DNA of 64,000 nucleotides from Yuukianura sp. NJ FZ-2021 (GCA_046563655.1 CM102287.1:124001-188000), one strand, 5' to 3'. Counted from the stretch's first letter, positions 1,968 to 19,693 are shown. Notes: generated by a model from the sequence alone, not told the origin. A program made the numbers and translations.

Positions 1968-4445
1968 TGTGGTACCCCGCCCCTTCGCATCGCTAGTGTT
2001 CTAAGGAACAGCTGCAGAGACTTGACCTTCTCCCTGTTCTTAACTATGCTAAGTCCATTGGTCTCAGGCGGAACCTTCGCCACCTCCGGACCTAGCGCGG
2101 TATCCTGTTGTCTAGATTCTAGCTTATGTCCTACCTAATAACAAGTTTCGGCTGGTCGCGACTCCAGCGTCCGCAAGCGTTCGGATTATCCTTCGACTAA
2201 GAGCAGTCATGGGGCATTCTCGCCAAATACCATGACCCCGGTCAAACATACACCAGTTGCTAAGGGTCTACCTCTTGACCCCGACTTGTCCCTAAAGGCG
2301 GGAAGCATCAAGTCCTTACGAGGACTCAGACCTAAAGCTATTGTCCTTAAACAGTACTACATAGTCACGAGGTCTATCCTCCCTCGTGACGAAGTCATTT
2401 CTAAATTTCTGCAATTTGAGCGAAGGCTCCTCCCTTCACTCTACTTAAGTGTCGACTAACTGTGGGAAGGGTTCCCCCCTTCCACTCTACTCATACTCTT
2501 TAATTATGAAGTGAAAGCTTTGAGAAGAAAAGAAACAGAAGAAAGCTAAACGAGTTCTTGTCATTACTTCGGATTCAGTCTTGACGTTACTTAAAAACAA
2601 GTATGAGATCAGTAGATTATTACAATGTAGGAGTATGGTTACTCCTATACAAAAAGCTGCTGAGGTCAAGAGAGGTCATAACGTCAAAAAGCCTTTTTCT
2701 GAATGCGAATTTACGTTAATCCTGTCTATGTTTGAAAAGATACTAAGCGAAAAGATAAATTTTAATTTTCAATTGAAACTTAATTCGAAATTCAAGAATT
2801 TGTCATTTGAAGAAAATTGAAATGTAAGTCCATGCATGAATTCTACTAGTTTGAATTTTGAGTGTTCGCGCCGAAATTCTGTTCAAAATTTTTATACAAT
2901 GAAACTTGTATAGTAGTTAATTAACTTATTATGACTTCTTCAGGGATTAATCAGACGTTATGCAATTGTACTTTGTTGAAATGAATTCAAATCAGCTGAG
3001 AATTTCATGAAATATGAGTTTGCTAAAATTTGCACTATTTTCGGCCTTTTGCAAAAACAGAATTATGAAATGGGAAAAACATTAGATGTAACACATGAAA
3101 CTTTAAAAATTTTGCTTAGAACTGACTACTGAACTGCAAGAAGATAAGACTTGATGTTCATCCATACATCATACTTTAAATTTTCAAAATTTAAATTTTC
3201 GCGCCAAAAGTAATTTTTCAAAAATTCTTCAGAAATGTGAAAGAGGACTTGCCATTTAGGCTGTGGGCTATAGGCCTACCCTTGCAAATAGTAAAAATTT
3301 TCAAATTCGAATTTTCCCGCCAAAAACAAGTTTCAAATTCTAAGAGCTGCTTTCTCCAGACGTTATGTTAAACGTTATTCTAGTTGACCTCGCTTGACCT
3401 TAAGTGAATCTAGGGACTATACAGAAGGATCTCAGTAGAACCTCCATTGAAACAGGGTGATTTTTGATGCTCTTATTTTGCTAATCTAATATTAATGTTC
3501 CCTTTTGATTGTTCTCTGAAAACAATCAAACGGCGGGTCTAACACCCGCCCCACCCCACTTGACCTGAAACTTGACCCTTCTGGGTCCCTGGGACTCATA
3601 TGACCTCAAAATGAACCAATGCCGCAGTTTTACTCTCTACCTTGCCTTCTACCTAGGTGGGGCCGGTCCCACCGGACCCACCTTAAATGACGTATGAAAA
3701 GTGTATGTCTAACTAACCCTTGAACCAAGATAAGAAGGGAAGATTCCCTTACCTCTGTCAGCTACAGTAGTATTCGGTGAAAGTGGCAGCGGCAGATGCG
3801 TGAGCTGTGAAGACGAAGCTGTGGAGATGCGTGGAGCCGTGAAACGTGGAATTGAAGACTGCCGAAAAGATCTTCCCAAGAACAGTGTTTATTTGTAAAA
3901 GACTTAGTGCTTAGACCTTAGACCTTAAGTTGGAGAGAGAGAGAGTACTTGGCCAGAAGCTAATCTAGAAATGACTTAACGCTAACAAGTTGTTACTTAT
4001 ATTTATAACCTTACTCTTGACCCAGCTTGTCCTTCAACTGAGGGACGCTTAGCGACCTGAGTTCAAAGTTGGACGTTAATGACCAGGATCTATGATCCTG
4101 TTCTGTCATTAAAGTCCAAGATTGAACTAAGTTGTGGGACTATGCAAGTTGATTATCTGGGCACTTTGTATGAATGTCAACTTTTGATGAGTTGACATTC
4201 ACATGTCTAACAAGTGTAAAACTTGTTAAACAAGCAACTTTGTTGCTTGCCCTCCCACTGATCCGTCATGTCAAAGATCAATTGTCATAAATCTTTGATA
4301 CTTGATCCTCTTGAGAAAGAGGAAAAGAGCTGAGTCTTTGCTTTCCTACTTGTTCTATTAAAACTAATGTTTATTTTACATTCGTCCGGTTTCGGCCCAC
4401 CGGGAGATTTCAAAATCTCCGGGTGGCTCGAAATCCGACGTTACA
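1968..4445. repeat. Putative long (~2.5 kb) LTR, rich in hairpins
   Basis: TG...CA ends and adjacent PPT-like tract. Minus-strand TATAAATA near 4000 and AATAAA near 3890. Many short inverted repeats. No second copy in the window to confirm the boundaries. Confidence 0.45.
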
Positions 4446-4510
4446 AAATGAATACTGAAACAATCGTCGAGAAATTGTAGGAATTTATATTTTATTTACC
4501 GAAAAAAAAA

Positions 4511-5097
4511 TTATTTGAACCAATCGCAATAAGAAAAGCATGCCTGGGATGACCCTGAGTGACCCCTATTCGTACAGATGCCTAAACTGTTATAAAAATC
4601 ATGTACAATTTTTTCGTTTTTGTTTAAATTTTTAGGACTAAATATACGTAAAGAACTACACAAATCTTTTCCGCTGCTCAACTCTTGAAAGACTTTTAAG
4701 CAGAACATGCCGCACGTTGCACTGTCATCCTTTTGTAGTTTTTTAGTGTTCCATTCTGAGATTGTAGTGCATGGGCCGTAAGCAAGAGATAGGTTGTAAT
4801 CGCTAGGCAATTTCCCAAAACTGTCAAAAAAACCAACCGGCCTTGCTCCAAGTGCGCCCAGAGAACCCAATGGATTCCTAAATTAAAACAAAAAATAAAT
4901 CTCTTGCGTTTCCATATTTTTTTTTACCTCAAGCATTTACCTGGAGAAGAAGTTAAGCCGGTATTTTGTATACAACAGAATGGAGGGCGTGGGTTTAGAA
5001 GGCTAATTCCATCATTAGAACTAACAAAAGTTCGAATTTTCGGGTCAGAGCACTCTTTTATACATGCCATCGCTTCCTCCAGTTCCGCCCCGTTCAT
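4511..5097 (-). CDS. Adenain-like (C5) cysteine maturation protease; 1 intron and a 1-nt frameshift in a T-run
   Basis: ATG at 5097 lies 2 nt after the MCP stop. GT-AG intron 4878-4940 joins NTGLTSSPG to IHWVLW (catalytic His), followed by FDSFG, LQ and TCGMFC. The T7 run at ~4826-4832 (minus strand) needs an eighth T to stay in frame. Confidence 0.85.
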
Positions 5098-5099
5098 CC

Positions 5100-6401
5100 T
5101 CAAGTTTTAAGAACTTGCGCGTTTCTGTTTTTGTCAATTGTTAATACGTTTTGAAAAGTTCCCAGCACAATCAACTCGACTGGCTCGTTCAGGGCTTCAC
5201 CAAAGACTGCAGTTACACGGACGGGTCCTTCGCGAGCAGGAAGGAGGTCATTGTTGGATACAGCAGCTTCAGAAAGTTGGAAAAGGTAGACGGCGTTGCC
5301 AAGTTTGAAATTCTCGCGGGAAATTCCGTTTCCAAAAGAACCGAGTGTATCAAATAGAGCCACGAATGGTTCCATGTACAGGTTTGCAGCGTAATTACAG
5401 ACAAGTTCTCTGTAAAATGGAACAAATTCTTCGGTTCTGACGCTGATTGAAGTTATGCCAAAGTCGGCAAAATTCTGTGGGCTATTCTTGTAGTTTCCTC
5501 GAAACGCTTTTGATTTAACCAAGGCAATTGCAACAATCGTAGGCATCCTGCGAAGAAAAAGTCGATCCGAGGTGAAGCTGACAGTTCCGGAAGCTATCGT
5601 GTTTCTTTCAATTTCAATTTCTCGGTAACTGTAGATTGCTTTTTTTCCATGGTTGAATAGTTGCTGATGGTTAGAGTAGATTCGAGGGCTAATTGTATGT
5701 GCCTTGAGATGAAAGACGGCATCTTCAATGGAATACGTATACTTTGTGTCGGTGGGCGTGTCCAAGCAGAAAGGGGCGGAGTTTTTAGTCAGTGTAAGTT
5801 CAATTTTTAGTCCCGAAGGAATCCATCGTTGGAGTTCACACAATGAACATGAAATTTTTCCAAACAAATCAAAGGTCTTTGACCCGGCACACATTGCTTT
5901 TCGTTTCGTATATCCAGTGTTTGTTGCGTCAAAGACATCCTGTTTGGAATCTGGGTAGTAGGCAATTGATGACAGGAGGCTCGCTTTGAGTTCTTGACTG
6001 TAGCCCAGGAGATGCGACAGAATTCCTCTGTAACTGTAACTTTGTGGGTACTCACTCATTTGGACGCCACCTACCGTGACCGTGCAGGAGTCAAAGATTG
6101 TGTAGAACATCATGTTGCTAATAGCAACGTCGGCAGTATCCGGAAGCGTTTCTCCACTTGCAGTGAGAACTTTACATTTTAGGTATAGGTATGAAGATGA
6201 GAAATCCAAGTAAACGTTTGGCGGAAATTGAAACTGCCCAATGTTGAATGTGATTTGAGGATTTTCTTTTACAGTATTCACAGGAATAATCTTGATGAAC
6301 TCTGTTTGCTGCACACTAATGTCAGTCGGGGGAACTGAAAATAGATCGAGTTGGGAGATGTAGTTGGGTTTTGTCCCCGGAAGCGTGTTTACTGAAGCCA
6401 T
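5100..6401 (-). CDS. Polinton major capsid protein (double jelly-roll, PY/hexon-like), 433 aa, intronless
   Basis: N-terminal SQLDLFSVPPT, YLD..SYLYLKCKV, YSYRG, F.G.Y.NSP.NF and C-terminal IDKNRN are typical of Polinton MCPs. Located between the penton and protease genes. Confidence 0.88.
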   Translation of the reverse strand: MASVNTLPGTKPNYISQLDLFSVPPTDISVQQTEFIKIIPVNTVKENPQITFNIGQFQFPPNVYLDFSSSYLYLKCKVLTASGETLPDTADVAISNMMFYTIFDSCTVTVGGVQMSEYPQSYSYRGILSHLLGYSQELKASLLSSIAYYPDSKQDVFDATNTGYTKRKAMCAGSKTFDLFGKISCSLCELQRWIPSGLKIELTLTKNSAPFCLDTPTDTKYTYSIEDAVFHLKAHTISPRIYSNHQQLFNHGKKAIYSYREIEIERNTIASGTVSFTSDRLFLRRMPTIVAIALVKSKAFRGNYKNSPQNFADFGITSISVRTEEFVPFYRELVCNYAANLYMEPFVALFDTLGSFGNGISRENFKLGNAVYLFQLSEAAVSNNDLLPAREGPVRVTAVFGEALNEPVELIVLGTFQNVLTIDKNRNAQVLKT

Positions 6402-6462
6402 CTTGAGACTGACTACCGACTAACGCTGGACTGAAGACTGAGGAATCTTGTAAATGGTTCTT

Positions 6463-6822
6463 CTATTTAAACGATTTTGGAGGTCTTGCTTGTTTCGTTG
6501 GTCCACAGCCGCTCTTTTTCTTTTTAGGAGTTTTCTTTTTAGAAGCAGAAGTTTCCACCGCGGAGACTTTCTTTTGTGGTGATTTTCCTTTTCTTTTAGC
6601 AGCTCCAGTCTTTTTACGGCCCTTGGATTTTTTTCTTCCTTCTCCTGTCATTTCTGAAGCACCGTTCTTTTTACCCTTTTTAGCTTTTTTCACACTCTGG
6701 AATGGAATTGAATTTGGTAAAACTACAGGAGTCAACGCCCCGTACCCAACCTGGCGAGTCTTTTCTCCGTCCATTCTTTTTAAAAGCTTACAACTTTCAC
6801 CTTCACACACAACTTCAAGCAT
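6463..6822 (-). CDS. Small Lys-rich putative DNA-binding core protein
   Basis: First ATG at 6822 with TATAAATA upstream. Very basic C-terminal half. GxG motifs QVGYG, MTGEG and KSGCG; MTGE/G fits the adenain cleavage consensus. Confidence 0.65.
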   Translation of the reverse strand: MLEVVCEGESCKLLKRMDGEKTRQVGYGALTPVVLPNSIPFQSVKKAKKGKKNGASEMTGEGRKKSKGRKKTGAAKRKGKSPQKKVSAVETSASKKKTPKKKKSGCGPTKQARPPKSFK

Positions 6823-6888
6823 GTGGCCTGTGGATCCGACGAAAGTCAAATGACGACTAACTAATGGAGCAGATTATTTATATTGGTT

Positions 6889-7989
6889 TCACAAAGTTTT
6901 ATTTTGAAAATGAAGTACGACGGCAGAATATAAATCGTTAGCTTGAGGAATTGGTTCCATATTTTCAAAAACGAGATCGATTCCAATTTCACTAATTTCC
7001 CTCCGGTCCATGTCAACAGGAAAGTATAGCAATGGCCGTGGAGTTTCGTGTACAATTCTAACAACTTCCTCTTTTTTCACATCTCGCCTTGGTAAAATGC
7101 TCATATGCCGAACTGCCTTGGATTTGAATTCCTGTGGTTTAACAGCATCGCAGAGCACAATCACATTGTTGTGATGTATATCCAGGTCAATGTTGGCGAT
7201 TGTCGGAGATGAAGTGTTGCTGTAGCTAAACCAAAATGGAGTTTTGAGGCCAAAAGTTTTTTCAAGAAATTCCGAGAGACGAACACGATAGCCACTTCCG
7301 GAGACGCCGTTGACGCTGAGTTTGCTTTCGTCGTAGGAAAATGAAATTTTCATCTGCTTCAAAGCAACGTTAATTTCACTAACTATGCCTTCGACTGTCT
7401 TGTCTTTGGGTTCATTGACCTTTACAGTAGAGCTGACTTCACGAAAAACAGTAAACTTTAGCGGCTCTGAAATGTCAATTGCGTCCAACGCTGCTTGGCT
7501 TGGAGACAACGGCGCACTAGTTTCACCCTGGCCAAACACATTTTTTGTAAATCCGAGAGCACGCGAATAGACTTCTGGAATTTTCACGTCGTAGCCAGCG
7601 TCATTGTTGCGAAATGTTAAAAAGTCATATCCTTCAACTACTTCCAATAGAAATGTCAGCTTGTTGTTGAATATTGCAAAATTCGTATTGCATTTGTTCA
7701 TTGTTTCAATATAACTTTCACTTTCGGCTCGAAATACTTCCATGCTTGATTCGAAGCGCTGAACCAAGGAAACGACATTGTCGTCGGGTTCATGGCCAAA
7801 AATCGTATACTTTCCAGTGTCTGGCGTTGCAGGGTACCACAAATTACAAACTGCAACTTCTAGCGGGAGATTCTTTTGCAAAGGAATATTGTCCAAAAGC
7901 TTATTTCGAAAAGAACTTGTATTATTAGATGGGAAGAATGAGGGAAATGAAGTAGAACCTAGAGTCACGAAGCGCGAAAACGGGTACAT
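6889..7989 (-). CDS. Polinton minor capsid (penton-like) protein, 366 aa, intronless
   Basis: N-terminal TL.S...FFPSNNTSSFRNKL...EVAV and C-terminal LYFPV...ISEIGIDL...VVLHF are typical of Polinton penton. The ATG is 1 nt after the integrase stop. Confidence 0.8.
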   Translation of the reverse strand: MYPFSRFVTLGSTSFPSFFPSNNTSSFRNKLLDNIPLQKNLPLEVAVCNLWYPATPDTGKYTIFGHEPDDNVVSLVQRFESSMEVFRAESESYIETMNKCNTNFAIFNNKLTFLLEVVEGYDFLTFRNNDAGYDVKIPEVYSRALGFTKNVFGQGETSAPLSPSQAALDAIDISEPLKFTVFREVSSTVKVNEPKDKTVEGIVSEINVALKQMKISFSYDESKLSVNGVSGSGYRVRLSEFLEKTFGLKTPFWFSYSNTSSPTIANIDLDIHHNNVIVLCDAVKPQEFKSKAVRHMSILPRRDVKKEEVVRIVHETPRPLLYFPVDMDRREISEIGIDLVFENMEPIPQANDLYSAVVLHFQNKTL

Positions 7990-7990
7990 T

Positions 7991-9155
7991 TTATGCGGTC
8001 ACTGGGGTCAGATCTTCGTTTAAGAAACTCCCTAAAAAAAGAATTGGATGTGGCTTTGTCAACTGGCAAAATCCGTCTAAAATGATTACCTTTAATCTCC
8101 TCCTTTTTTAGCGTCTCAAGATAGTAAAAGGGAGGCACGGCGCTGATTGCCTTTCTAATCCTATAAAAAAAGAAACGCTTGGCATACATTCGAAAACAGG
8201 GCGAATATGCTTCTTTACCTAAAGACTTCCGTAGAGTACGATTGTGACGTTGAAGCTTTTTCAAAAGTTAGCCGCTTTCTAGCGACCCTCACGAGCTGAC
8301 CCACCTGAAGAAAAAGACTATGTTTTAATGAGACAAAGTGAATGTTTAGCATCAACTCAATACCTTGAATTTTGGCTTCTCGGGTTTGGAATTTATCAGT
8401 TTGTCGTACACGTTTATAAAAACCGTGGTTTTGTTTTTTGGGTCAATAGCCTCTGTGGGGGTCATCTTCAGAGTTGAATGCACCGTTTTATTGTAATTTG
8501 AGACAATGTCCGGCCATAGAGTTTTCATAGAAGACTTTGGATTTGCAAATTGAGCCCGGGTCAAGTTTCTTCTTAACGTTTGAATTACACGTTCTACTTG
8601 TGAAACTTTTCTCGCAGTTCTCGGGGAATAGCTGTGAATGTCATTGGCTTCCAAATATTTCAAAAGGCTTTTATTCTTGAATTCTTTGCCAAAATCAGAA
8701 GCCAAGAAATGCGGGAGATGCTGAGAAAAAAAATGATAAACTTTAAATGGACATGAGAGAGAAAAGAAGACATTTACCCCAGCTTTTTTGAAAACTTTCT
8801 TTATGGCTTCTAGAACGACCCGTGCTGTCTTGTTGACACAGAACTCTGTCCACACAAAGCGGCTAAACAAGTCCATGCAGATGAGAATGAAGCCAATCTT
8901 TTCTTTTTTGGCAGACTTTTTGTCCAACTGTAAAAGATCCACTCCAAATGTCATATAAGGAAAAAACGTTAATACTGGCCTGGTCCTTGGCTTTCTTTGC
9001 GGCCTGTGTAAAGAATATGCAGGAACTCCGGACAAAGCTTGCTTGACCTTTTCTTTGTCTAAAAAGCCTGACGACTTTAAGAATGATGGAAAACCTGAAA
9101 AGCTTCCAACTGCTTTTTTATTTAAATAGGCTGACTTTATTTGTCTTTCAGACAT
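7991..9155 (-). CDS. Polinton retroviral-like (DDE) integrase, 5 exons
   Basis: Catalytic motifs GVDL, ASDFGKEF, VERVIQT. GT-AG introns 8721-8777, 8305-8363, 8161-8218 and 8032-8089 restore the typical C-terminus KFKVGQLVRV...FEK...YSTEVFRI...YYL...EEIKGSF. Confidence 0.9.
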
Positions 9156-9286
9156 GCTAAGAACCTACGGAAGAAATTACACAAAACAGTGTATGACGGA
9201 GACTGCCGGATGAGTATGACTTTTTACCAAATTTATTTAAAAAATGACCGAATTTTCGAGAATTATTTAAGCTTAAGACTCAGGGG

Positions 9287-9750
9287 TCAGTTGGTATCCA
9301 TAGCGTCTTCTTCGTTCCAGTCCATTGACTTTACCAAGAAGCACGGATTTTCAAAACACTGTGATCCGGTTCGTCCACAGCCCAAGATACACGGTTCGGA
9401 AAGTACCAAGTGACACTTCATGTCCTTCATGAACTCTTCCAAGTCTCCTTCCCGAACATAGGCCGAGTGATCCGCTGCCAGTTCATTCATTGTCTTGTCC
9501 TTGTTAATTTCTGCATGGTAGACGTAACAGTCACGGTGATCCCAGCGGTTCCAGCAGCCATATTTCAACACAGCGCTGCCAAGTTGGCGTATGACAGGAT
9601 CCACTACGGCAAGCTCGTCCAAAAGTTGAGCCAATGGCTTTTCCTGTCTGTTTGGGCAATCTAGATACAAAAAGAAATTAGTTTCAAAGGTCAAAAACTG
9701 ACAATTTCTAAAATTTTACCCGCCAACGGTGGAGAATCTTTTATCGGCAT
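9287..9750 (-). CDS. Polinton accessory Cys/His-containing protein, 2 exons
   Basis: ATG at 9750, 59-nt GT-AG intron 9661-9719, TATA-like motif near 9805, AATAAA downstream. No family recognised. Confidence 0.6.
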
Positions 9751-10049
9751 TTTGAAAATGATGGCGTTTACTACGGAATGATGGCTTTTACAAACTCCTG
9801 TCGCTTTATATACCCTATCGAACTGAGTAGAAACGTTTTGAAAAGATGTTGACTAGAAATTTCCGAAATTTTCGGTCCATTGAAAATTCCGCTCTGTTGA
9901 ACTCAAAAGGCCCTACGGCATACTAAATGCGATTACTCATGCACACAAAAAAAAAGCCAAGGAAATATATTCTTGTGCACTTTCCTCCTTTGTATTCAGT
10001 CGCACTTTCCTCATCCCCTCCTCAAGTCACACAAAATCTTCAGAAAGCA

Positions 10050-10928
10050 ATGGAAAACACAGAGCCAGCTAACAACCAGTTTCCTAGCCATGAAGAATTG
10101 CCAGAAGAAAGAGATTGGACAGAAGTATACAAAGTGAAAATCAGTCATCCGGACACTTTGGATTGCACTTTAATAACGACAGGCCCTAAGATTTTAAAAG
10201 TACTACGCATTGAACAGCACGGCACGGCAACCACTGTTGATTTCGAAGTGATACCAAAACTCATCGGAAAGCTTTTTCAACTTTATCTTCAGAACGGTGG
10301 GCGAGCGAGCGAGCTGCCGTATGTAACACTTTATCATGAGAGAGGTTCAACATGCCTTATAATTCGACACAAAGACTCCAAGGAGGTTAGGAGCTGGCCG
10401 CAGGATTCTGAAAACGGTCGTAAAACTGATCCAGACCCAATCCGCTGCCCACAAGGAATGTATCCCGCGCCAATTATCGTGTATCAGACGTCTCAAATGG
10501 ACGGGTTTTGGCCTAGGCACGCAGAATCTCGTGATAGCAGTACCGATTGGGCACAATTAGACAAATTGCGCATCAGTCAGCCGGACGCTTGGGATTGTTC
10601 TCTAATTACGGAAGATCTTAAGGTCTCGAAGGTCATCCGCATCGAACAGCACGGCGCGGCAGCCACCGTGGATTTCCAAATGATTCCGAGCCTAATCGGC
10701 AAATTGTTTCAACTCTTTCTTGGAAGCGGCGGGAGAGTGACAGAACTGCCGAGAGTAAAACTTTATCACCAGAAAGGCACTACATACCTTGTGATTCGGG
10801 ACAATGACTCTGTGGACAATTGGAACTGGCCAACTGATTGGGAAACGGGTCCTAGGATTACGCCTCTAGGAAAATTAATCGAGTATCAGACATATCGAAT
10901 CGAAGGAGACGAGGTATTCGTGGCATGA
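10050..10928 (+). CDS. Polinton accessory protein made of two tandem homologous domains
   Basis: The block ISHPDTLDCTLIT...RIEQHG...VDF..IP.LIGKLFQL...GGR..ELP.V.LYH occurs twice. Likely start is MENTEP at 10050. Confidence 0.7.
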   Translation: MENTEPANNQFPSHEELPEERDWTEVYKVKISHPDTLDCTLITTGPKILKVLRIEQHGTATTVDFEVIPKLIGKLFQLYLQNGGRASELPYVTLYHERGSTCLIIRHKDSKEVRSWPQDSENGRKTDPDPIRCPQGMYPAPIIVYQTSQMDGFWPRHAESRDSSTDWAQLDKLRISQPDAWDCSLITEDLKVSKVIRIEQHGAAATVDFQMIPSLIGKLFQLFLGSGGRVTELPRVKLYHQKGTTYLVIRDNDSVDNWNWPTDWETGPRITPLGKLIEYQTYRIEGDEVFVA

Positions 10929-11502
10929 TTGGGCAAAATTTAATGAACCACAGAGACGCCTCACTAGCGTTAGAAACGTAGTATATTGAGTAGCATTACT
11001 CCACTAGCATTTGCATAAAAGAATTTTGTCGTTGTGAAATTTATTTGAATTCTGGTGAAAAATTTGTATTATGTAAAATTTGATAAAAAAAGTAAACTTT
11101 CAATTTTTCTGAAATCCTTTTCCCAAGCCTTCTTCAGTTTACAGAACACACCAAAAGCTGCTCACAAAAAAAAAGAAAAGAAAGAAATCCATTCATTGTC
11201 ATGATGTATTTGAAATAAATTCTCCACTTCCATATTTTTTTTTCAGTTTATTTTTTTTTTGCCTTTGTTCCACTTTCTTTACCTCGAAATCTTTACTCTT
11301 ACTACTAAGACAAGAAAAAAAAATAGAAAGAAACAAAGAAACTTTTGAACATTCAATTTTTTTTATTGAATTTTTCAAGCTAAATTTATGGGTGGAAGAG
11401 GTCAATGCCGTCTGTGTTGCTCAAACTCCTCATCGGGCGCGCTGAACAAAACTAAAAATAAAGAAAAATTAAAATAACTTTCGCAGTAGCGTTGTTTCTT
11501 GA

Positions 11503-11790
11503 TCACTTACTCATTTCCAGTAGCTTCATCTGAGCATGCCGATGCATGCTCCTACAGTGCAGAAAGTTGGCTATGGCGTCCTGCTCTTCCGGCCTGCAGT
11601 ACCTAGGAGTTGCGCCATATCTCCAGTTGTTCCAAGCCGCTCTGAGGCGGTCGTATGTAGCGTAGGCATCCAGAATTAGCCTACGTCGCCAGTTCCCGCC
11701 GGTCCTCTGGTCGTCGCAGATGACCTCCTGGGGGCAGACACAAGTGTCCCAATCGTCGTGTTCGCATGGTCTGGCTACTGCGGATCCCAT
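11503..11790 (-). CDS. Small accessory protein, MGS start, Cys-rich N-terminus
   Basis: ATG at 11790 (MGSAVARPCEHDDWDTCVCP). The upstream part of the track ORF is T-rich and looks non-coding. Confidence 0.55.
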   Translation of the reverse strand: MGSAVARPCEHDDWDTCVCPQEVICDDQRTGGNWRRRLILDAYATYDRLRAAWNNWRYGATPRYCRPEEQDAIANFLHCRSMHRHAQMKLLEMSK

Positions 11791-11982
11791 CTCTATTTTC
11801 TCTTTGAAACTTTTAGACTGTGAAGCAAAAAGTGATCTAAAGCAAAAACTGCAGAAACTACAGAATTTAAATACTGTAGACGACGAGCCAAAAAAATGCA
11901 TCTTAAACATTGAAGAAGAAAAAGTTAGGTAAAAGCTGATAGCCAAACATTTATTCAAAGCTTTTTTTCTTTGAAACCTTCT

Positions 11983-12396
11983 TTACAAATCTTCAGGGTC
12001 AACCTTAGCAGCAATACTCTCCATCGTTTTCACAAAAGCGTCAATGTCTCCACGACAAAACGTTAACTTTGGCCCAAAATACCCATCAAATTTTGAATTG
12101 TCGCTCGGGGAATTGAGATAAAAAAAATATCTGTCCCTCCGGACGTTGATAAAACGCATTCTAAACCGCATAGTTTCGCTGTACCAAGCGTCGTCGTGTG
12201 TCCAGAATGAGAGCTCCTTGGGCTCAATCAGGGTTCCCGTCTCGTACTTGAATAAGGGAGCTCCTGCCTTCACGGACTCGTCAATCTCAGCCAGAGTCGA
12301 TTTGATTTGATCCAGGATTACAGCAACTTCTCGAAACAAGATTCCAAGGATCGTTGGGCTCGCGTTGGAGTTGAGTTTCTGGATGTAAATCTTCAT
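11983..12396 (-). CDS. Hypothetical Polinton protein, 137 aa
   Basis: Clean ORF with a polypyrimidine-CAG acceptor 2 nt before the ATG and AATAAA after the stop. Confidence 0.6.
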   Translation of the reverse strand: MKIYIQKLNSNASPTILGILFREVAVILDQIKSTLAEIDESVKAGAPLFKYETGTLIEPKELSFWTHDDAWYSETMRFRMRFINVRRDRYFFYLNSPSDNSKFDGYFGPKLTFCRGDIDAFVKTMESIAAKVDPEDL

Positions 12397-12472
12397 GGCT
12401 GCAAAAGAAAGAAATGCAATTTGTAAAAAAAAAAGAATACAACCGAAACTTTCATATTTTTCAATTCATATT

Positions 12473-12907
12473 TTAGTTAATCGTACTTTGAGAATACGGG
12501 TCAAACCCGAGCCGAGCGTAGAACGTAGTTGACGTTCCGAACTTTTCCACCAGTCCAGATTCAGAAAAGAATGCTTGCGCATTCTTTGGCCCAAGCTCCA
12601 GTTGCTTTGCCTTTTTCACGTAACTCATCGGTAACCCAGAGAATGCCTCGGTGAAAATAAAAGGAGTGTTCGGCGGTCTTCCCTCCACGACGTCCTGGCC
12701 ACCCGGATTGGCGACGCCGGTCAACAAGTCAATGGCCCGTCGACTCCTGACGGCCGGTGTAGCTTCATCTGCGTCATCAAAGTCCAAGCGTCTTCTAAAC
12801 GCTCCCACCTTTTGCGTTGGAATTTCTGAAAACATTTTAAAAGAATTAGCTCCAAAAAGAAACTTTAGTATCAATTGTAAATACTAACCAGCGCTATTGC
12901 TTCCCAT
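12473..12907 (-). CDS. Small accessory protein, 2 exons, MGSNSA start and RRRLDF motif
   Basis: ATG at 12907 and GT-AG intron 12826-12888 give MGSNSAEIPTQKVGAFRRRLDFDD. Confidence 0.6.
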
Positions 12908-13224
12908 CTTCGAGCTGCGTTACTTTGGATGACGTTCTTGAATTTGTGAAAGTACTGGTGACTGGACCTCGAATCCGGGCCTTTTTAAGGGAAAATTTTA
13001 GCCCCGTGTGACCCCTGAGGTTCATGAACTGGTTAGGTTACTAACCTAGCCAATCCAATGCTGTGCTTGGTCCCCACCCTACCTCCCCCCCAACACCGTT
13101 TCGGCGATAAAATTTTGACCTCGGACGACCGGCGATTTTTTCAGAGAGTTGCGGCAGGGCCAGTGCACTCAGTCGGAGATACGATCATTACCATCTTAAT
13201 ACAATTCAATTGCTCAATTATGTT

Positions 13225-13470
13225 AAATTTCGAATATCACTCAAAACAAATTATCTCCAGGCCGACAAAGCGGCACGTCACGACTCCCTAATCTGGGCAT
13301 TGTGCTCTTTAGGGTTGAAGAATCTTAGCTCCAACAATGATTATCTATTCATGTTATTCTCTCCTTGCAATTTGAATATCACGAAATTATATCTCGGACA
13401 ACAAAGCGGCGCGTCACGACTCTCCAATTTTGCAATTTTGCATTGTCCTCGATAGGGTTGAAGAACTTTG
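13225..13470 (+). repeat. Degenerate two-copy direct repeat in the intergenic region between divergent gene blocks
   Basis: GAATATCAC...ACAAAGCGGC(A/G)CGTCACGACTC...GCATTGT...TAGGGTTGAAGAA appears twice, ~140 bp apart. Confidence 0.7.
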
Positions 13471-13609
13471 GCTGATTACTACCCTCCAGGCTTTTGTGCT
13501 CAGTTCAATGACCGAAGGTAACCCCTAGAGCGTTAGCATCAGAAACAGTCGTATAAAATCCCGCCTTAAAATCGTTTTTAAGTCTGCAAAATTTCTTAAG
13601 CCAGTCAGT

Positions 13610-14014
13610 ATGAATTCATCTACACATCATTGCTGTAAATGTGTAAAAATATTTAGTCCAATCAGAATCAAAGTAATCAAAGACAGACTTACTAAGTCGC
13701 GCTGCCAAGACATTGAGAAAATTGTTCGGGAAGACTACTCGCAGTGCACAAACTGCGACATTGTGTGGGACGGATTTGCGCAGCACGTTTGCCCGTCAAC
13801 AAAGCCTTCGAAGCCCTTGAGTATTGTGGAGATTTTGTGTAGTATTCAGCGTTGGAGCAGCAAAGAGCCATTTACGTTTGGCGGATTTAGATTCAAAATT
13901 GGAAGAGTCACCGCATTGGACGCCGCTTACATTCAAGAAGAAATTTTGAAAAACTTTAACGTTTTCTACTCTTCACGTCTGCCCGTAAAGTCCATCAAGC
14001 GTTGCAGACTGTAA
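13610..14014 (+). CDS. Cys-rich hypothetical protein (CxxC...WDGFAQHxC)
   Basis: TATA at ~13552. The stop lies 2 nt before the helicase ATG. Putative zinc-binding motif CTNCDIVWDGFAQHVC. Confidence 0.6.
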   Translation: MNSSTHHCCKCVKIFSPIRIKVIKDRLTKSRCQDIEKIVREDYSQCTNCDIVWDGFAQHVCPSTKPSKPLSIVEILCSIQRWSSKEPFTFGGFRFKIGRVTALDAAYIQEEILKNFNVFYSSRLPVKSIKRCRL

Positions 14015-14016
14015 AG

Positions 14017-16331
14017 ATGGATAAAAGTTCACTCAAACGAAAGCTGGAGAAAGGAGAAAGCGGAAACGTTGTACACAAGTTGGTTCCGAGTAATCCATTA
14101 ACGTTTTTAGAATACTGCAAAACTCAGCCCGTCAACAGAGTATTTCCGGTCGTTGAACTAGAGCAGCTCAATTCCAAGCAGCGACAAACTGCAAAACTGG
14201 TGACTGAAGCCCTCTCTGCTCGTAACCAGGAATTCATTTTGTGCCACGGCGCGGCTGGGACAGGCAAGCAACAGCCATTTCTTTAGAAATTTCATTTGAA
14301 ATTATTTATTGTTCTCAAAATTTAGGAAAAAGCTTCATAATACACTATTTAAGAGGCTATTTCGAAAAGAGGAAGATTCGTTTCCTTGTCTTTGCATTCA
14401 CTGGTGCAGCGGCATTCAACGCGGGAGGAATAACTGTTCACAGCGGCCTCTCATTAAGTCTGGGTCATCGAAAGCATGACCCGGAAAAATATGTCGAATT
14501 TCCAAGGGAGAGACTGAAGGGAGTACGACTTTTAATAATTGACGAAGTTTTTATGCTTGGGGTTGGCCTTCTGGGATACATGGAGCGAAGACTTCGGGCA
14601 ATTTTCAGGACACAAGAACCATTTGGAGGTCTAACGGTGTTGGCCATGGGTGACCTGGCACAGTAAGCTACACTTTTAAATGTGTAAACCTCATAATCAG
14701 TGTTGGTGGATATCCACTTTTTCGACATTTCGTCCACGGCTGGATATCCAGTGGAAGAAATGGACGAAATGGATGAATCCAAAGGGGCGGAGCTTTGCCC
14801 TCCGAATTTGAATTAATTGGCTACAAAAAACTAAAAAACATGAAAACACAGTGCAAAAACTATGTAAATATAGTTTTTGAATACGTTTTAAATAATATAT
14901 TAGCTATTAATCACGAAAGTAAAGCTCTCTGATATTATTTTGTAAATTTAAATTTGAATTAATTTGAATTTCGCGCAAAATTTGTGATTTCTTCCATCCA
15001 CTTTTAGTTTCGTCCATTTGGGGCGCGTTTCTTCCAGTGGATATCCACTGGAAGTGGCTATTAAGCCACTGGACGTTTAAGCGTCCACCAACACTGCTCA
15101 TAATAATGATGTTTGATGTTTAAGGCTAAGTCCAGTGGCAGATAGACCCTTATACTACAAGTCTGCGCATGCCGAAGGCTTGTGCTTGGATGGGATCAAG
15201 GCGTACGCGCATTTTAACCAATGCATAATACTGACAGAAATTATGCGGCAAGACGAGTCTCAAGCCAAGTTGAAAGAAATTTTGTCGCGCGTACGGTGCG
15301 GAAAACTAGAAGAACAAGACATTGAAGCGCTGCAATTGAGGTCTTTGGAACAACTTTCTTCAGTCCTGACTGCGGAAGAGCTTTCACTTTTCCTCTCCAC
15401 TCCTGTTCTCTTTGCAGAAAATCACAACGTGAATAGTTACAATGAGTAAGTCTTTATAAGATACTGAATTTATGCATACTATTAAAAATGTAAAAAAAAG
15501 AAAACGAATTTCGGAGATGGACGTTGACATTACGGAGGTGGACGCCATCGACATGCGAGATGAGACAAAGACTGGCGACAAATTGAAGCTAGCGGTTGAA
15601 GCCCGCTGCATGTTAACCAAGAATATTTTTGTCGCAGCAGGTATACCATAGTATCCATATTAATTTTAAAAAGACTAATTTCTGATTTTTCTAAACAAGA
15701 CTTTACAACGGAGCACTAGTCGCAGTCACTCAGATTTCAAACGAAGTAGACGAAAACGGATTTCCAAGTTTCGTTTTCGTCCGTCCCGACACATATTGTG
15801 GCGTTCCATACCCACTCAGGAGAGATATTCCTATAGTTCCGCTCGTGATGCCATACTATGACAAGTATGCGGGAAGAACTTACCAAAGAAAGTTATTCCT
15901 ATTGCAACTGGCTTGGGGGATGACATGTCACAAGGCACAGGTAAATTACCTCAAGACTATGCTGAAAACATTTGGTCATTTGTTTTTTCTTTATAGGGCA
16001 AAACTTGCAAACGGGTAGTGGTGGGGAATCCAGCACCCGGTGACACATCAACAATGTTTACTAGTCAGGCGCCTCAGTTGGTTTATGTAGCAATGAGTAA
16101 GAAACAATTTTTTGCATTTTTTTCGTATTTTTCAAGCTTAATAATGAAATTTAAAATTTAGGTCGTGTCACAACTCTGGACGGATTAATGTTCCAGCACC
16201 CATTCAGTCCAAATCTGGTCGTGGGACATAGGAGCCTAGCTATTCGGCAATGGCAGGAGGAATTACAGCGCCTAGAAGCCATGGAAGCCAACACCAACAC
16301 GAATTTCAATTTAATTTTAGATTTAAAATAA
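14017..16331 (+). CDS. PIF1: PIF1-family (SF1B) DNA helicase, 7 exons, possibly inactivated
   Basis: After splicing: HGAAGTGKS, AFTGAAAFNAGGITVHS, IIDEVFM, FGG...GDLAQLSPV, LTEIMRQ, LAWGMTCHKAQGKT, YVAMSRVTT. Introns 14264-14325 (GC-AG), 14663-15124, 15446-15500, 15641-15698 (acceptor reads AA), 15941-15996 and 16097-16161. Confidence 0.88.
14698..15096. mobile_element. hAT-type MITE (399 bp) in helicase intron 2
   Basis: TIRs CAGTGTTGGTGGA / TCCACCAACACTG with an 8-bp TSD CTCATAAT on both sides. Removing it leaves a 55-nt intron. Confidence 0.9.
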
Positions 16332-16427
16332 ATAGTTTTATGGTAGCATTGTGAATTTTGGCTTTACTAGTAAAAGTATTCATAGATTTCCATTCAACTG
16401 TATTCAGTTTGCAAGAATTTTTAACAA

Positions 16428-16512
16428 AGTACAAGTGGTTCAGTGGTATGAGCGTGTTCTGAAAATTTTTGTTGCCTGGGTTCAAATCTCTTGTGGTTCA
16501 ACTTTTTTTTTT
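16428..16512 (+). ncRNA. Degenerate tRNA-like / Pol III-type element
   Basis: A-box-like TGGTTCAGTGG, B-box-like GGTTCAAATC, ACAAG/CTTGT pairing and a long T run. No valid anticodon arm. Confidence 0.35.
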
Positions 16513-16813
16513 ATTCCAAATACTATGTTTTCTTATTGTTGAAACAATTCGTTTTTTAAAAAAAATTATTTTTTATTTTTTGAAAATTTTTAATACAATT
16601 GAAAAGATAAAACAGCATAATTAACTTAAAAACTAAATTCAAGTTAAAATTTGCCCATATGTACTCATCTCAGGTGAGTGGGTACAAAGGTGAATGCAGG
16701 TGTGCATGTGCAGCCGGTTGTAAACAAAAGCACGTGAAAGTGAAAGTTGTAAAAACTCCCACTTCCTCGTGCTTCTGTTTTGTGTTGCTGTGCTGGAAGA
16801 GGATTCCTAGAAA

Positions 16814-18252
16814 ATGGTAAGTTTTTATAATTAAAATTAAACTAAATTAAACTAAAAACTAAAAATTTTTTATTAAAATTTGTTTTTAGGAAAATTTTAG
16901 AATGTTGCTGGGCCATTTGGCAATCGTGGTCTTGTTTGGAGCCACGGGGTTTGGGGATCCCCCAAAATGTGACCTGAACTGGCCCTGTGTTCAGTGTCAG
17001 GGGAGCGATGCGCTTGGTCGAGGCGTGAAGACGGGGTGGGGGTATGCCACCCCATTGGGGAGACCCCCAATGGGCGCTACATCTTCTCTTGGCTGCCCCC
17101 TGACACCCTAAAGTGCCCCCAGCCTGAACAGGCACGAGAGGGGGTCCCTGCTACAGAGTGGGAGACTGCTGCCATCATTTTGGCAGCTTGGCTGGCGTGT
17201 AAGTTTTTTTTTATAAAATTGGAACGATACAGAGTAAGGTTTGTTGACTTTGATTTTCTTTAACAGGTTGAGTAATACCTCATGTTTTTTTAATTTTGCA
17301 AAAATAGTGTCTTTCATTTCATGATATCATAGTCTTAACAATACAGCTGAATTTTTTAATTTTACATTCGATTTTTTTTTTATATTTGTACCAAAATTGG
17401 TACAAAATGTGTTTTTTTTTATTTTTGACAACAATCGAGATAGTACTCAACCTGTTAAAGAAAATTCATTTTTTGTTGTCACATTGCAGACAAATCACTA
17501 ATTCATGATTTGTCTTTGTTTCAGTAGTGACAACTTGTGTCGTGGGTGCAGGGATTCGGTGGTTGATTGGGTGGGTTAGGGAGTGGAGAGAGCCCCACCA
17601 ACATCGGGGATTTAGGCCCCGCCCACCAACACCACATCCAGCTACGCCTGCTGCCCCACGACGTGCCACGACGGCCCCACCACAGTTGCCCCACCGTCCA
17701 GCTCCACCAACTCCTGCAGCAGCAGCGACTGGCTTGGCCCCACCACCGTGGGGTGAGTACCCCAACCTGACCAGCCCCACGATGGTGCAGCACCTGGAGC
17801 CGTTACGGCAGTCGGCCAGACTGGCTGCCAAGCGGCAGCATCCGGAGTATTCCCGGCCAAGGCAAGGTTTGTTTTTGTTTTTATTAAGTAGCGAAAGCTA
17901 CTTTATGCAGAATCTGCAATGCAATTTTATTTGCAAGTAAACAGAATGAGAGTGGAGAGTAGAGTGGAGAGTGCGAACATAGAAGTAACCATCCCGCATC
18001 TCTCTCCATTGTCATTCTGTTTGCTTGCAAAAAACTGCATTGCAGATTTTTGCACCTTTTTTTTTAATCAAATTTTATTTTTTATTTTCAGGTACCGGTA
18101 CTAGGTACCAAGCACCCAGCACCAGCACCAATCCATTTCTTCGCGGGAACATGGTTTCGTTCCCATTTGCGGTTACAAATCCGCAGTATTCAGCACTGGA
18201 TCTAAATCCTACGGGATTAGTTTCCAGTGCTGAAGAAACGTCATTTGTTTAA
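16814..18252 (+). CDS. Spliced type I membrane protein (signal peptide, Cys-rich ectodomain, TM, Pro-rich tail); frameshift in a G-run
   Basis: ATG|GTAAG, introns 16817-16889 and 17199-17524. Signal LLGHLAIVVLFGATGFG; TM AAIILAAWLALVTTCVVGAGI. One extra G near 17040 joins the two frames. The 3' exons are uncertain. Confidence 0.55.
17264..17454. mobile_element. Small TTAA-flanked MITE in an intron
   Basis: TTAA-CAGGTTGAGTA ... TACTCAACCTG-TTAA. The host intron is far longer than the ~60-nt norm here. Confidence 0.65.
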
Positions 18253-18719
18253 TGGCAAATGGGAATGAACCATGTTCATTAGATTAAGTTTTCCTTTTCC
18301 GGTTATTTTCAGTTTCAAATTCAATGTTGTTCAACAGAAGAGCTTAGCCACATAAAGTATAAGGCATAACATTGAATTTGAAACTGAAAAAAGCTGGAAA
18401 ACGATAGTTAGTTTAATCTTTTTGCACAGTTTTTCTTAAAAATTTACACTTTTGCAAAAATAAAATTATATTCGGCCTGCCATTTACTTGTAGTTGTTTT
18501 TTTCACTGACTCTGTCAGAATTGCCACAGTTGCCTGGTGGTGTAGAGCGACAGTAACAAAATAGAGAGACGGAGAGCGACGCGAAGTCGAATCTTTAAAA
18601 GTTTTTTTTTATTTTTTAGATTTTTTTTATTTTTTAGATTTTTTTTTAAATTATAAATAATATTTAAGAATAATTAATAATTTAAATCTGCATATAATAT
18701 TTTACAATTGTTAATTAAT

Positions 18720-18984
18720 TACATTTTTATTAACATGGATTTGAGCGGGGTGAACGGACAGGGGCTGGGGGTGTGGGGAGGGGGGCTTGACCTATTTTCT
18801 TCTGGTAAACAGTTACCACTAACTGATATATAGTGGAGGGGGGGTATGGGGGTGCGGAGGTGGGGGGGGGGTGATGACGTCATATGCAAAACGTTTTTGC
18901 GCATGAGCAAAAAACGTCTTATGCAGATGCAATTGCTGATAAGGACGGCGGCCATTTTGAAAAAAGTCCTTTTCCTCTACCACT
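18720..18984 (-). repeat. Putative Polinton terminal inverted repeat (right end)
   Basis: Minus strand begins AGTGGTAGAG and contains CAAAATGGCCGCC, TGACGTCA and G/C tracts. It abuts BEL sequence 9 nt after the pol stop. The partner TIR is not in the window. Confidence 0.6.
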
Positions 18985-18993
18985 AAGTATAGC

Positions 18994-19287
18994 TCAAATA
19001 CCATAGCGAATCGGTTTCCGAATTGTCCGTCCGCTTCTTGTAGTCTTCTGTTTTGGTTCTGCAGTTATGACCTCGTCTTCGTCCTGACACGGCAGGCACT
19101 CACAATAAGTGTCGCTGTCGCTGTCAACTGCAGATTGTCGATGACGTTGGAGCTCTCGGCTGTCTTGACACTATTGCTCTCGGATGTCTTGACTGGTGGC
19201 TCCGGTATCTCGTCATGTCTCAATTCCATTGGCACGAGTCGTTGGATGGGACGTAGTAGCTCTCCATTCTTCGTCTTCAATTTGGCT
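18994..19287 (-). pseudogene. pol: C-terminal tail of BEL1 pol, separated by the Gypsy insertion; frameshifted
   Basis: GEIRVA (27274) joins KLKTKNGELLRPIQRLVPME across the GGCT TSD. Confidence 0.85.
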
Positions 19288-19693
19288 TGAAGTGCCCTGG
19301 TTTTCCCCCTTTAGGTTAGGGTCAATTGCCCCTTGAGGTTAGGGAGTGGCCTTAGGTTAGGGTAGTTAGGTTAGGGTTTAGTCTTAGCCTGTAGTGAGAT
19401 TTGGTTTAGCGTTTAGCGGGAGTTTTGAGTAGAGTTAGCGTGGTAGAGGAGAGTCAGGAGAGTATTGAGACTAGTTGTGCTAGTCAGTCGGTTTTTGGTG
19501 TTTGGTTCAGCATGAGCTGAGACTTTGTATCATTTTGTACAAATAAATATCTTTTATATTTATTTGTCTCCGTGTCTTTGTGTTGTTTCTTGGTGTCCCT
19601 TTTGGTCCTCAGTTTTGTTGCATGAGTCCGGCAGTGCTCGGATCGTAGTCTGGAGGCCATCTTTGGCAGTTTTGCGTAGCACGAGGTGCTACA
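19288..19693 (+). repeat. Gypsy 5' LTR
   Basis: Near-identical to 26880-27273 apart from a few small indels and substitutions. Contains TTAGG-like motifs and AATAAA. Confidence 0.95.

Follow-up and report, generated by a model that had tools for sequence, protein, structure and literature searches.

Gene content of the element

We analysed a window of 64,000 nucleotides (nt) from the animal Yuukianura sp. NJ FZ-2021 (GCA_046563655.1 CM102287.1:124001-188000; positions are counted from its first letter), which contains a Polinton-like, virus-like element rich in introns. The element is one copy of a multi-copy unit of about 14 kb, whose left end lies at about 4446 and which reaches at least 16331, perhaps 18400. 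Gene models built from coordinates on both strands placed 11 genes between about 4446 and 16331, with intact reading frames in nine of the 11 and, in addition, in the helicase. Six of the 11 genes carry introns, 15 altogether (four in the integrase, six in the PIF1-like helicase, one in the protease and four in accessory genes), and 13 of the 15 are 55-65 nt long. These models bear out an earlier note on this DNA, which had counted at least 15 introns with the same distribution and mostly of this size. Thirteen of the 15 introns have GT-AG ends; of the other two, both in the helicase, intron 1 is GC-AG and the acceptor of intron 4 is non-canonical in the window copy. We consider it quite probable that the element belongs to a recently proliferating family of endogenous virus-like elements present in many copies in an animal genome, with genuine spliceosomal introns in its non-capsid genes, the splicing of which we infer.

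The minus-strand genes follow in the order integrase, putative penton, lysine-rich 'core' protein, major capsid protein (MCP) and protease, with three accessory genes (g9750, g11790 and g12907) upstream on the same strand. The plus strand carries an open reading frame (ORF) with two repeats, a Cys-rich ORF and the PIF1-like helicase, followed by a membrane-protein gene. The element would join two modules, a minus-strand block for morphogenesis and integration of Polinton/Maverick type and a plus-strand PIF1-like helicase module. Three gene pairs are separated by 1-2 nt, namely integrase/penton (1 nt), MCP/protease (2 nt) and the ORF at 13610/helicase (2 nt). The packing of 1-2 nt described earlier is found in these pairs but not between penton and core (66 nt) or core and MCP (61 nt).

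The PIF1-like superfamily 1 (SF1) helicase (14017..16331, plus strand) has 518 residues encoded by 7 exons. It is firmly assigned on sequence similarity, matching PF05970 with an E-value of 5.8e-13, and exon 2 has 4692 homologues at E<=0.001; a word-based protein search with exon 2 found nothing. Its 6 introns lie at 14264-14325 (62 nt), 14663-15124 (462 nt), 15446-15500 (55 nt), 15641-15698 (58 nt), 15941-15996 (56 nt) and 16097-16161 (65 nt). Intron 2 comprises 55 nt together with a 399-bp miniature inverted-repeat transposable element (MITE) and its target duplication (407 nt together). Empty-site joints were found in other copies, from 14692 to 15100 and from 14667 to 15097; the MITE is therefore a later insertion. 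It occupies 14698-15096, with 13-nt terminal inverted repeats (TIRs), an 8-bp target duplication and a summed contig depth about 100x that of neighbouring bins, and from the size of the duplication we take it to be hAT-like.

The rve-type integrase (7991..9155, minus strand, 310 aa) has 5 exons and 4 GT-AG introns of 57-59 nt, at 8777-8721, 8363-8305, 8218-8161 and 8089-8032 (57, 59, 58 and 58 nt), and its stop codon lies 1 nt before the penton ATG. Its assignment is weaker and comes from sequence patterns. Exon 1 alone matches rve positions 26-62, and a D, D, E pattern was recognised by eye in the spliced protein. Upon reading through, 87 residues span 70 positions of the rve profile, which fits the 19 read-through residues of intron 1 being an insert. 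No match was found among PDB sequences, and none in a word-based protein search with exons 1-2 read through. The adenain-like cysteine protease (4511..5097, minus strand; exons 5097-4941 and 4877-4511) contains one GT-AG intron of 63 nt (4940-4878) and is likewise a weaker assignment. It has no Pfam match, and HW and Q...CG motifs were recognised by eye. A tblastn search with the protease of L001, a 4797-nt metagenome contig that is the nearest relative found, matched 4837-4565 at E 2.7e-7, plus a 7-residue match at 4878-4858 in another frame.

Three accessory genes on the minus strand also carry introns. The gene g9750 (9287..9750) encodes a Cys-rich protein of 134 aa with no Pfam family and has one 59-nt intron (9719-9661), and g11790 (11402..11790) encodes 109 aa and also has one 59-nt intron (11510-11452). 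In g12907 (11983..12907), a 63-nt intron (12888-12826) is accompanied by a possible, uncertain 88-nt intron (12486-12399), which would join two ORFs into 257 aa. The g12907 and g11790 proteins both start with Met-Gly-Ser, which we presume could be an N-myristoylation signal.

The capsid block is free of introns. The MCP (5100..6401, minus strand, 433 aa) is firmly assigned as a double jelly-roll major capsid protein on its predicted structure. Its AlphaFold2 model (pLDDT 72.7, pTM 0.75) matched the MCPs of Sputnik (3j26_A) and mavirus (6g44) in Foldseek with an E-value of 2e-13. The best match in BFVD was a protein of the bracovirus of the parasitoid wasp Cotesia sesamiae (E 3.7e-20), followed by capsid proteins of adintoviruses, virophages and nucleocytoplasmic large DNA viruses (NCLDV), and the 97 BFVD matches at E<=0.001 were mostly capsid proteins. 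The lysine-rich 'core' protein (6463..6822, minus strand, 119 aa) has no Pfam family; a lysine-rich ORF also occupies this place, upstream of the MCP, in L001. The putative penton or minor capsid protein (6889..7989, minus strand, 366 aa), also with no Pfam family, was assigned by position and size only. All three genes are uninterrupted ORFs, in agreement with the earlier description of MCP, penton and core as intronless, the identity of the penton being putative. From the density in the intron-bearing genes (15 introns per 4523 coding nt, 3.3/kb), MCP, core and penton (2763 nt together) are expected to contain 9.2 introns. The probability of finding none is 1.05e-4, or 7.95e-4 when the two other intronless ORFs are included in the background. 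The absence of introns from the capsid block is non-random.

Sequence hallmarks of the introns

The introns share a 5' consensus GTAA(G/A)T and a T-rich 3' end followed by (T/C)AG, and the GC content of the short introns is 24.7%, compared with 41-56% in the coding sequences. These values were obtained from 15 short introns, comprising 14 of the 15 element introns and the first intron of the membrane-protein (TM) gene, the MITE-bearing helicase intron 2 being left out. All the sequence hallmarks of spliceosomal introns (ends, consensus, T-rich 3' end and a length of 55-65 nt) are present, so that the host-style introns proposed earlier are recovered, as known from DNA alone. On these hallmarks they are genuine spliceosomal introns of U2 type, short and rich in AT, and splicing itself is what we infer from them. 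The introns resemble each other no more than was judged attributable to chance (the best pair scored 21, compared with at most 19 across 20 shuffles). An introner origin was considered and rejected for this reason.

Upon removal of its introns, the helicase becomes one open frame of 518 aa in which the PIF1 motifs Walker A, GDxxQL, HKxQG and SR are rejoined across introns 1, 2, 5 and 6, respectively. Among 45 homologues, indels within 3 residues of junctions 1 to 6 were found in 0, 1, 0, 10 (5 extra, 5 missing), 0 and 1, respectively. Removal also leaves open frames in the integrase, g9750, g11790 and g12907 (frames only). The earlier statement that intron removal restores conserved motifs in the enzymes is thus correct for the helicase at all six junctions; for the protease there is L001 homology on both sides of the intron, and for the integrase an open frame only.

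A cross-strand test was performed with donor and acceptor matrices trained on the 7 plus-strand introns and scored at 456 GT and 513 AG sites of the minus strand between 13000 and 4400. Recovery was defined as a top-30 donor and a top-30 acceptor forming a pair 50-95 nt apart. By this measure 6 of the 9 annotated minus-strand introns were recovered, with 2 extra pairs only, and in g11790 the donor ranked first and the acceptor second. A pair from this test that would place an additional intron at 6861-6801, across the core ATG, was judged to be chance, being GC-rich and, by eye, without a T-rich tract. Strong acceptors before each capsid ORF, as in adenoviruses, were not seen between 9300 and 4400, where the five top acceptor scores are the five annotated acceptors under a matrix that included the annotated sites. 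The one exception is the acceptor of the final integrase intron (8032), which precedes the penton ATG by 42 nt; the MCP ATG has only a weak site, 29 nt ahead of it.

Other copies of the element were compared through contigs from 4 DNA runs (X1-X4) of 2 studies. The differences considered are a selected sample, which weakens them as support, because only 40 of 1466 listed substitutions and 12 of 161 indels were displayed, chosen by the tool as best supported. Nine of the 12 displayed indels fall in introns or non-coding DNA (lengths 1, 1, 2, 2, 6, 1, 4, 2 and 1 nt). The three exonic ones are one of 3 nt and two of 1 nt, the latter coinciding with the two frame breaks of the window copy. Among the 40 displayed substitutions, 13 of the 25 that fall in exons are synonymous (6 of 7 in the MCP); about a quarter of changes are expected to be synonymous by chance. 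A copy diverged by about 15% keeps the position of helicase intron 1, with 77 unalignable letters in place of 60. The comparison of intron positions suggested in the earlier note found them kept both in divergent copies and in relatives that are 44-54% identical.

Several further observations weigh against genuine introns in a virus-like element. The cross-strand test missed 3 of the 9 introns, through the donor of 8363-8305 (rank 198) and both g12907 acceptors (ranks 103 and 83), and the second g12907 intron is therefore especially uncertain. Intron 1 of the integrase (57 nt) is in frame and free of stops, and could in principle be coding. The Pfam rve match of the integrase (E 3.7e-4, 21.1 bits) lies under the 32.6-bit cut-off, and the protease weakly matches adenovirus protease around the catalytic Cys (E 0.45). 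The AlphaFold2 single-sequence model of the putative penton has a pLDDT of 30.4, and the Atlas neighbours of this protein are all viral hypothetical proteins (score 0.95). In addition, the window copy is damaged at three places: the protease and the TM gene each have a frame break, and helicase intron 4 has its non-canonical acceptor. The missing DNA polymerase, packaging ATPase and terminal repeats described below are counted on the same side.

The damage bears on the question of whether the 'introns' are random insertions or frame-breaking junk in a dead element whose genes are decayed pseudogenes. Two frame breaks and one defective splice site fit such decay, as does the location of the element among retrotransposons and a 190-bp satellite, and vertebrate Maverick fossils contain insertions that gene finders call introns, according to the available portion of PMC8097293. 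Contigs of other copies depart from the window sequence at each of the three damaged sites. The protease goes out of frame at a homopolymer run near 4825-4832, with other copies differing in length at 4825, and the membrane-protein gene does so near 16999, where other copies also differ in length. Both breaks lie in homopolymer runs and may be assembly errors; the matrixin gene of the window also changes frame. Decay would hardly produce introns of such narrow size with consensus ends, 25% GC and no mutual resemblance beyond chance, nor splice signals on one strand that predict the introns of the other. It is equally at odds with the homology restored at all 6 helicase junctions and with positions kept in divergent copies and distant relatives. 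We therefore find decayed pseudogenes scarcely credible.

Copies, relatives and class membership

Hundreds of contigs in the four runs match the element, with identities to the window of 85% to more than 99% and with differing flanks. Two of them (records 17 and 24, from runs X3 and X4) stop matching at about 4446 and extend 673 and 554 nt past this point of divergence. The left end of the repeated unit is accordingly placed at about 4446, where copies at other loci leave the window, and the limit of 4511 given earlier was not upheld; the left end region (4446..4510) carries no strand. Contig depth over 9952-11364 is reduced in the X1-X3 copies, suggesting that the accessory region is variable among copies, and other copies may carry different genes there.

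These copies also bear on the possibility that an old insertion was co-opted by the host and gained introns, the copies being a host gene family. Host-type introns and the synonymous excess among the displayed differences would be expected of domesticated genes. Against this stand the number of copies, their range of identity up to near-identity and their differing flanks, as well as the full viral gene order with overlapping-type spacing and the retention of the integrase. The location is also rich in repeats and satellite DNA, and copies have been hit by MITEs. Domestication is very improbable on this evidence.

Relatives of the helicase are present in public protein sets. The database proteins P0008, P0007 and P0023 share 51%, 54% and 44% identity with it. 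P0008 ends exactly at the position of helicase intron 2, and P0007 and P0023 end at that of intron 3. P0007 contains a 22-residue in-frame insert at intron 2, read through, and P0008 is uninterrupted over intron 1. From these sequences, the three proteins look like the products of ORF callers applied to intron-bearing genes. The earlier expectation that ORF-based screens would miss such a lineage is matched by these proteins, fragments that stop at intron positions of the window.

The MCP has 6 sequence homologues only. L001, the single locus obtained from a metagenome scan, has the lysine-rich ORF, MCP and protease in the same order as the window. Its protease is a single ORF without an intron at the site of the window's protease intron, and its MCP contains a 70-nt GT-AG intron with the sequence TACTAAC. 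Once this intron is removed, the alignment with the window MCP reaches residue 427 instead of 397, and its score rises from 201 to 224 bits. The MCP intron and the absent protease intron of L001 therefore indicate that introns are a family feature, found in more than one host and placed differently from lineage to lineage. The absence of introns from capsid genes, as put forward earlier, accordingly describes this lineage but is not a trait of the clade. Downstream of its protease, L001 has an open-ended ORF of 548 aa (3153-4796) with matches to C2H2-type zinc fingers (E about 0.01); it belongs to no Pfam family and has no counterpart in the window. Scans of viral contigs with the MCP alignment and with P0007 found nothing, and one with P0008 found only distant helicases in large viral contigs (L002-L007).

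L001 is of importance for the possibility of a chimeric origin, in which an intronless virus captured intron-bearing genes from its host or from a cellular transposon, so that the distribution of introns would reflect history and not function. The GC content of the helicase and accessory genes (0.46-0.56) is higher than that of the capsid block (0.41-0.43), the closest helicase homologues are PIF1-like proteins that are often very long, and the accessory region is variable, with lower depth over 9952-11364 in other copies. A precedent comes from nematode Mavericks, where the part of 10.1101/2022.07.12.499685 available to us reports intronless core genes and introns in cargo only. However, the core genes include the integrase with 4 introns and the protease with 1; both adjoin the capsid block, at 1-2 nt from the next gene, and have a GC content of 0.41. 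The capsid genes share the GC content of these two intron-bearing genes, and composition therefore gives no sign of a separate arrival of the block. Furthermore, the intronless protease and the intron-bearing MCP of L001 show that introns come and go in core genes. A chimeric origin is distinctly unlikely in our estimation.

Three components of a classical Polinton were not found. No protein-primed family B DNA polymerase (pPolB) is present among the Pfam matches of 15 ORFs of >=84 aa, further ORFs and exons, where exon-by-exon scans were too weak to place most exons. The gene models leave no unassigned stretch big enough for one, and a tblastn search with the large ORF of L001, itself without a family, matched nothing. 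A packaging ATPase of FtsK/A32 type was sought through its Walker A motif, and no candidate was seen in the element in a six-frame search of the whole window, nor in the spliced accessory proteins; motifs split by introns in other genes could escape this search, the Walker A of the helicase itself being split by intron 1. No long inverted repeat frames the element, and a short-word blastn search of the flanks found neither TIRs nor a target duplication. Local alignment of the left end against 16300-64000 scored 30, compared with a maximum of 32 for shuffled sequence, a result by which a short or displaced repeat could be missed, with the right end unfixed. The window copy may be non-autonomous.

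With no polymerase, packaging ATPase or TIRs found, the element is therefore a Polinton-like variant and not a classical Polinton, as defined by the core set of PMC5718144. The label Polinton-like virus, used in the earlier note, is justified by the double jelly-roll MCP, the probable adenain-like protease and the probable rve-type integrase, but is a loose one for want of the other three. A Helitron was considered for the PIF1-like helicase and rejected: there is no Rep (HUH) fusion, and the helicase has its own ATG 2 nt after a 134-aa ORF without a Pfam family, in a gene within the capsid-gene unit.

The remaining genes of the locus lie on the plus strand. The two-repeat ORF (10050..10928, 292 aa, intronless) has halves of about 100 aa each, whose coding sequences (10113-10422 and 10545-10854) are 71% identical; it has no Pfam family and no usable Atlas match, and is probably variable cargo. 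The Cys-rich ORF (13610..14014, 134 aa) is also intronless and without a Pfam family, and its stop codon lies 2 nt before the helicase ATG. Two direct repeats, each about 105 nt long (13226-13330 and 13369-13473, 72% identical), lie in the 700-nt spacer that separates g12907 from the divergently oriented helicase module, and could be a promoter or an origin. The membrane-protein gene (16814..18252) has a signal peptide, a Cys-rich part, a transmembrane segment, a Pro-rich tail and at least three introns, of which 3 are modelled as further introns outside the 15; it could belong to the element as cargo or merely flank it. One of its introns contains another short repeat of very high abundance (17236-17481), with inverted arms of 52 nt. 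Short palindromes able to form hairpins were observed just beyond the protease stop codon (4395-4424, by eye) and just past the membrane-protein gene (18292-18404, 37-nt arms). An Rfam search of 3500-19500 gave no family, and no tRNA was found.

The element is surrounded by a matrixin gene, a Gypsy-type retrotransposon, several BEL/Pao-type retrotransposons and long 190-bp satellite arrays, and the region is repeat-rich and possibly heterochromatic. BEL/Pao elements are not known from outside animals, and on this ground the host is taken to be an animal. The matrixin (MMP-like) gene (255-1686), the only clear host gene in the window, changes frame near 700 without a recognisable intron, as expected of a pseudogene or an assembly indel. 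The satellite arrays extend over 39359-60776 with up to 42.6 copies and are interrupted at about 49.4-51.8 kb by a BEL/Pao-type insertion; the element adjoins satellite DNA. Directly after the Gypsy-type pol ORF, an unusual third ORF of 503 aa (25357-26868) combines a 3'-5' exonuclease domain (DNA_pol_A_exo1) with an HRDC domain.

Expression of the element and its relation to known systems

The presence of introns in the enzyme genes points to nuclear transcription by RNA polymerase II and to processing by the host spliceosome. The intron-bearing genes would be transcribed in the nucleus by the host polymerase, and their introns would be inherited at the DNA level while the element multiplies. 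The sequence suggests splicing of these introns and present or recent activity of the element, and the intron-free capsid block may differ in its mode or time of expression. Splicing might also, as proposed earlier, separate early from late expression or help the element to evade silencing.

A more specific possibility is a two-programme architecture written in the introns. The genes for chromosomal life and mobility (integrase, helicase and accessory genes) would be host-like, depending on splicing and being protected by it, for instance against the surveillance of intronless transcripts. The capsid block would serve a virion-producing phase without splicing, which might come late in infection after genome amplification, or proceed under the cytoplasmic machinery of a helper virus, similar to virophages. 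We put this forward tentatively, as a possibility on the unlikely side. If true, it would be the first such case for an animal Polinton-like element and a parallel to the RNA-seq picture of punuivirus.

Punuivirus, an endogenous giant virus of Chlamydomonas, resembles the element in that its latent, host-like programme genes are enriched in introns and its virion and virulence genes are not, according to the text available for 10.64898/2026.10.09.758095. It differs in being a 617-kb nucleocytovirus of a green alga, with late genes that have their own viral promoter and with the support of RNA-seq (same source), whereas the window element is known from DNA alone. Similarly, the accessible text on mirusviruses (PMC12768974) describes many canonical GT-AG introns, read there as a sign of nuclear expression, in a virus realm and in hosts different from ours. 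The same text holds the idea that introns confined to early genes may tie only the early phase to the nucleus. The eupolintoviral proviruses of dinoflagellates also contain intron-type sequences inside Polinton-like proviruses. However, those are recognisable families of introner transposons with about 25% in coding regions, as far as the consulted sections of PMC12166617 go, whereas the introns of the window are mutually unrelated and all interrupt coding sequence.

The animal Mavericks/Polintons (vertebrate, nematode and adintovirus-type) share with the element a double jelly-roll MCP next to a putative penton, tight packing of the genes, many genomic copies and an animal host, and probably also the rve-type integrase and the adenain-like protease. 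They differ in their intronless core genes (PMC8097293, 10.1101/2022.07.12.499685) and in having pPolB, a packaging ATPase and TIRs (PMC5718144), within what these sources make available. The window element has 15 introns and a PIF1-like helicase in the place of pPolB, and neither a packaging ATPase nor TIRs were found in it. Polinton-like viruses (PLVs) with helicase-based replication modules are alike in combining a morphogenesis block centred on the MCP, without pPolB, with a helicase. The group with an SF1 helicase presumably includes Tlr1 and its relatives. Most known PLVs come from protists and metagenomes and normally retain the packaging ATPase, and the available text of PMC10120064 and PMC9356565 treats them as free of introns, whereas the window element is from an animal and intron-rich.

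PMC8097293, in the portion available, defines 'intact' vertebrate Mavericks by intronless ORFs and reports that these contained no introns, consistent with Kapitonov and Jurka 2006. Surveys of endogenous PLVs and Mavericks commonly call genes with prokaryotic or ORF-based tools, which has been justified by the absence of introns (PMC10120064 and PMC9356565, likewise in part). Together with the nematode work (10.1101/2022.07.12.499685), these partial texts match the earlier statement that Polinton core genes are generally described, or assumed, to be intronless. Full-text literature searches, limited to passages of main texts, did not turn up any animal Polinton-like element described as having core genes rich in introns. 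In the accessible portions of PMC10748475, PMC12220804, PMC4028283, PMC6431247, PMC11296320 and 10.64898/2026.07.28.741278, no mention of spliceosomal introns within core genes was found.

The intron-rich enzyme genes described here go against the usual assumption that Polinton-like elements are free of introns. In ORF-based screens, a proliferating lineage with about 3 introns/kb in its enzymes would come out as fragments or be classed as degraded, and public protein sets already contain what appear to be truncated and read-through pieces of its relatives. The introns would tie the expression of the enzymes to the host nucleus, and the contrast between the enzyme genes and the capsid block would provide a testable handle on how integration and replication are separated from virion formation.

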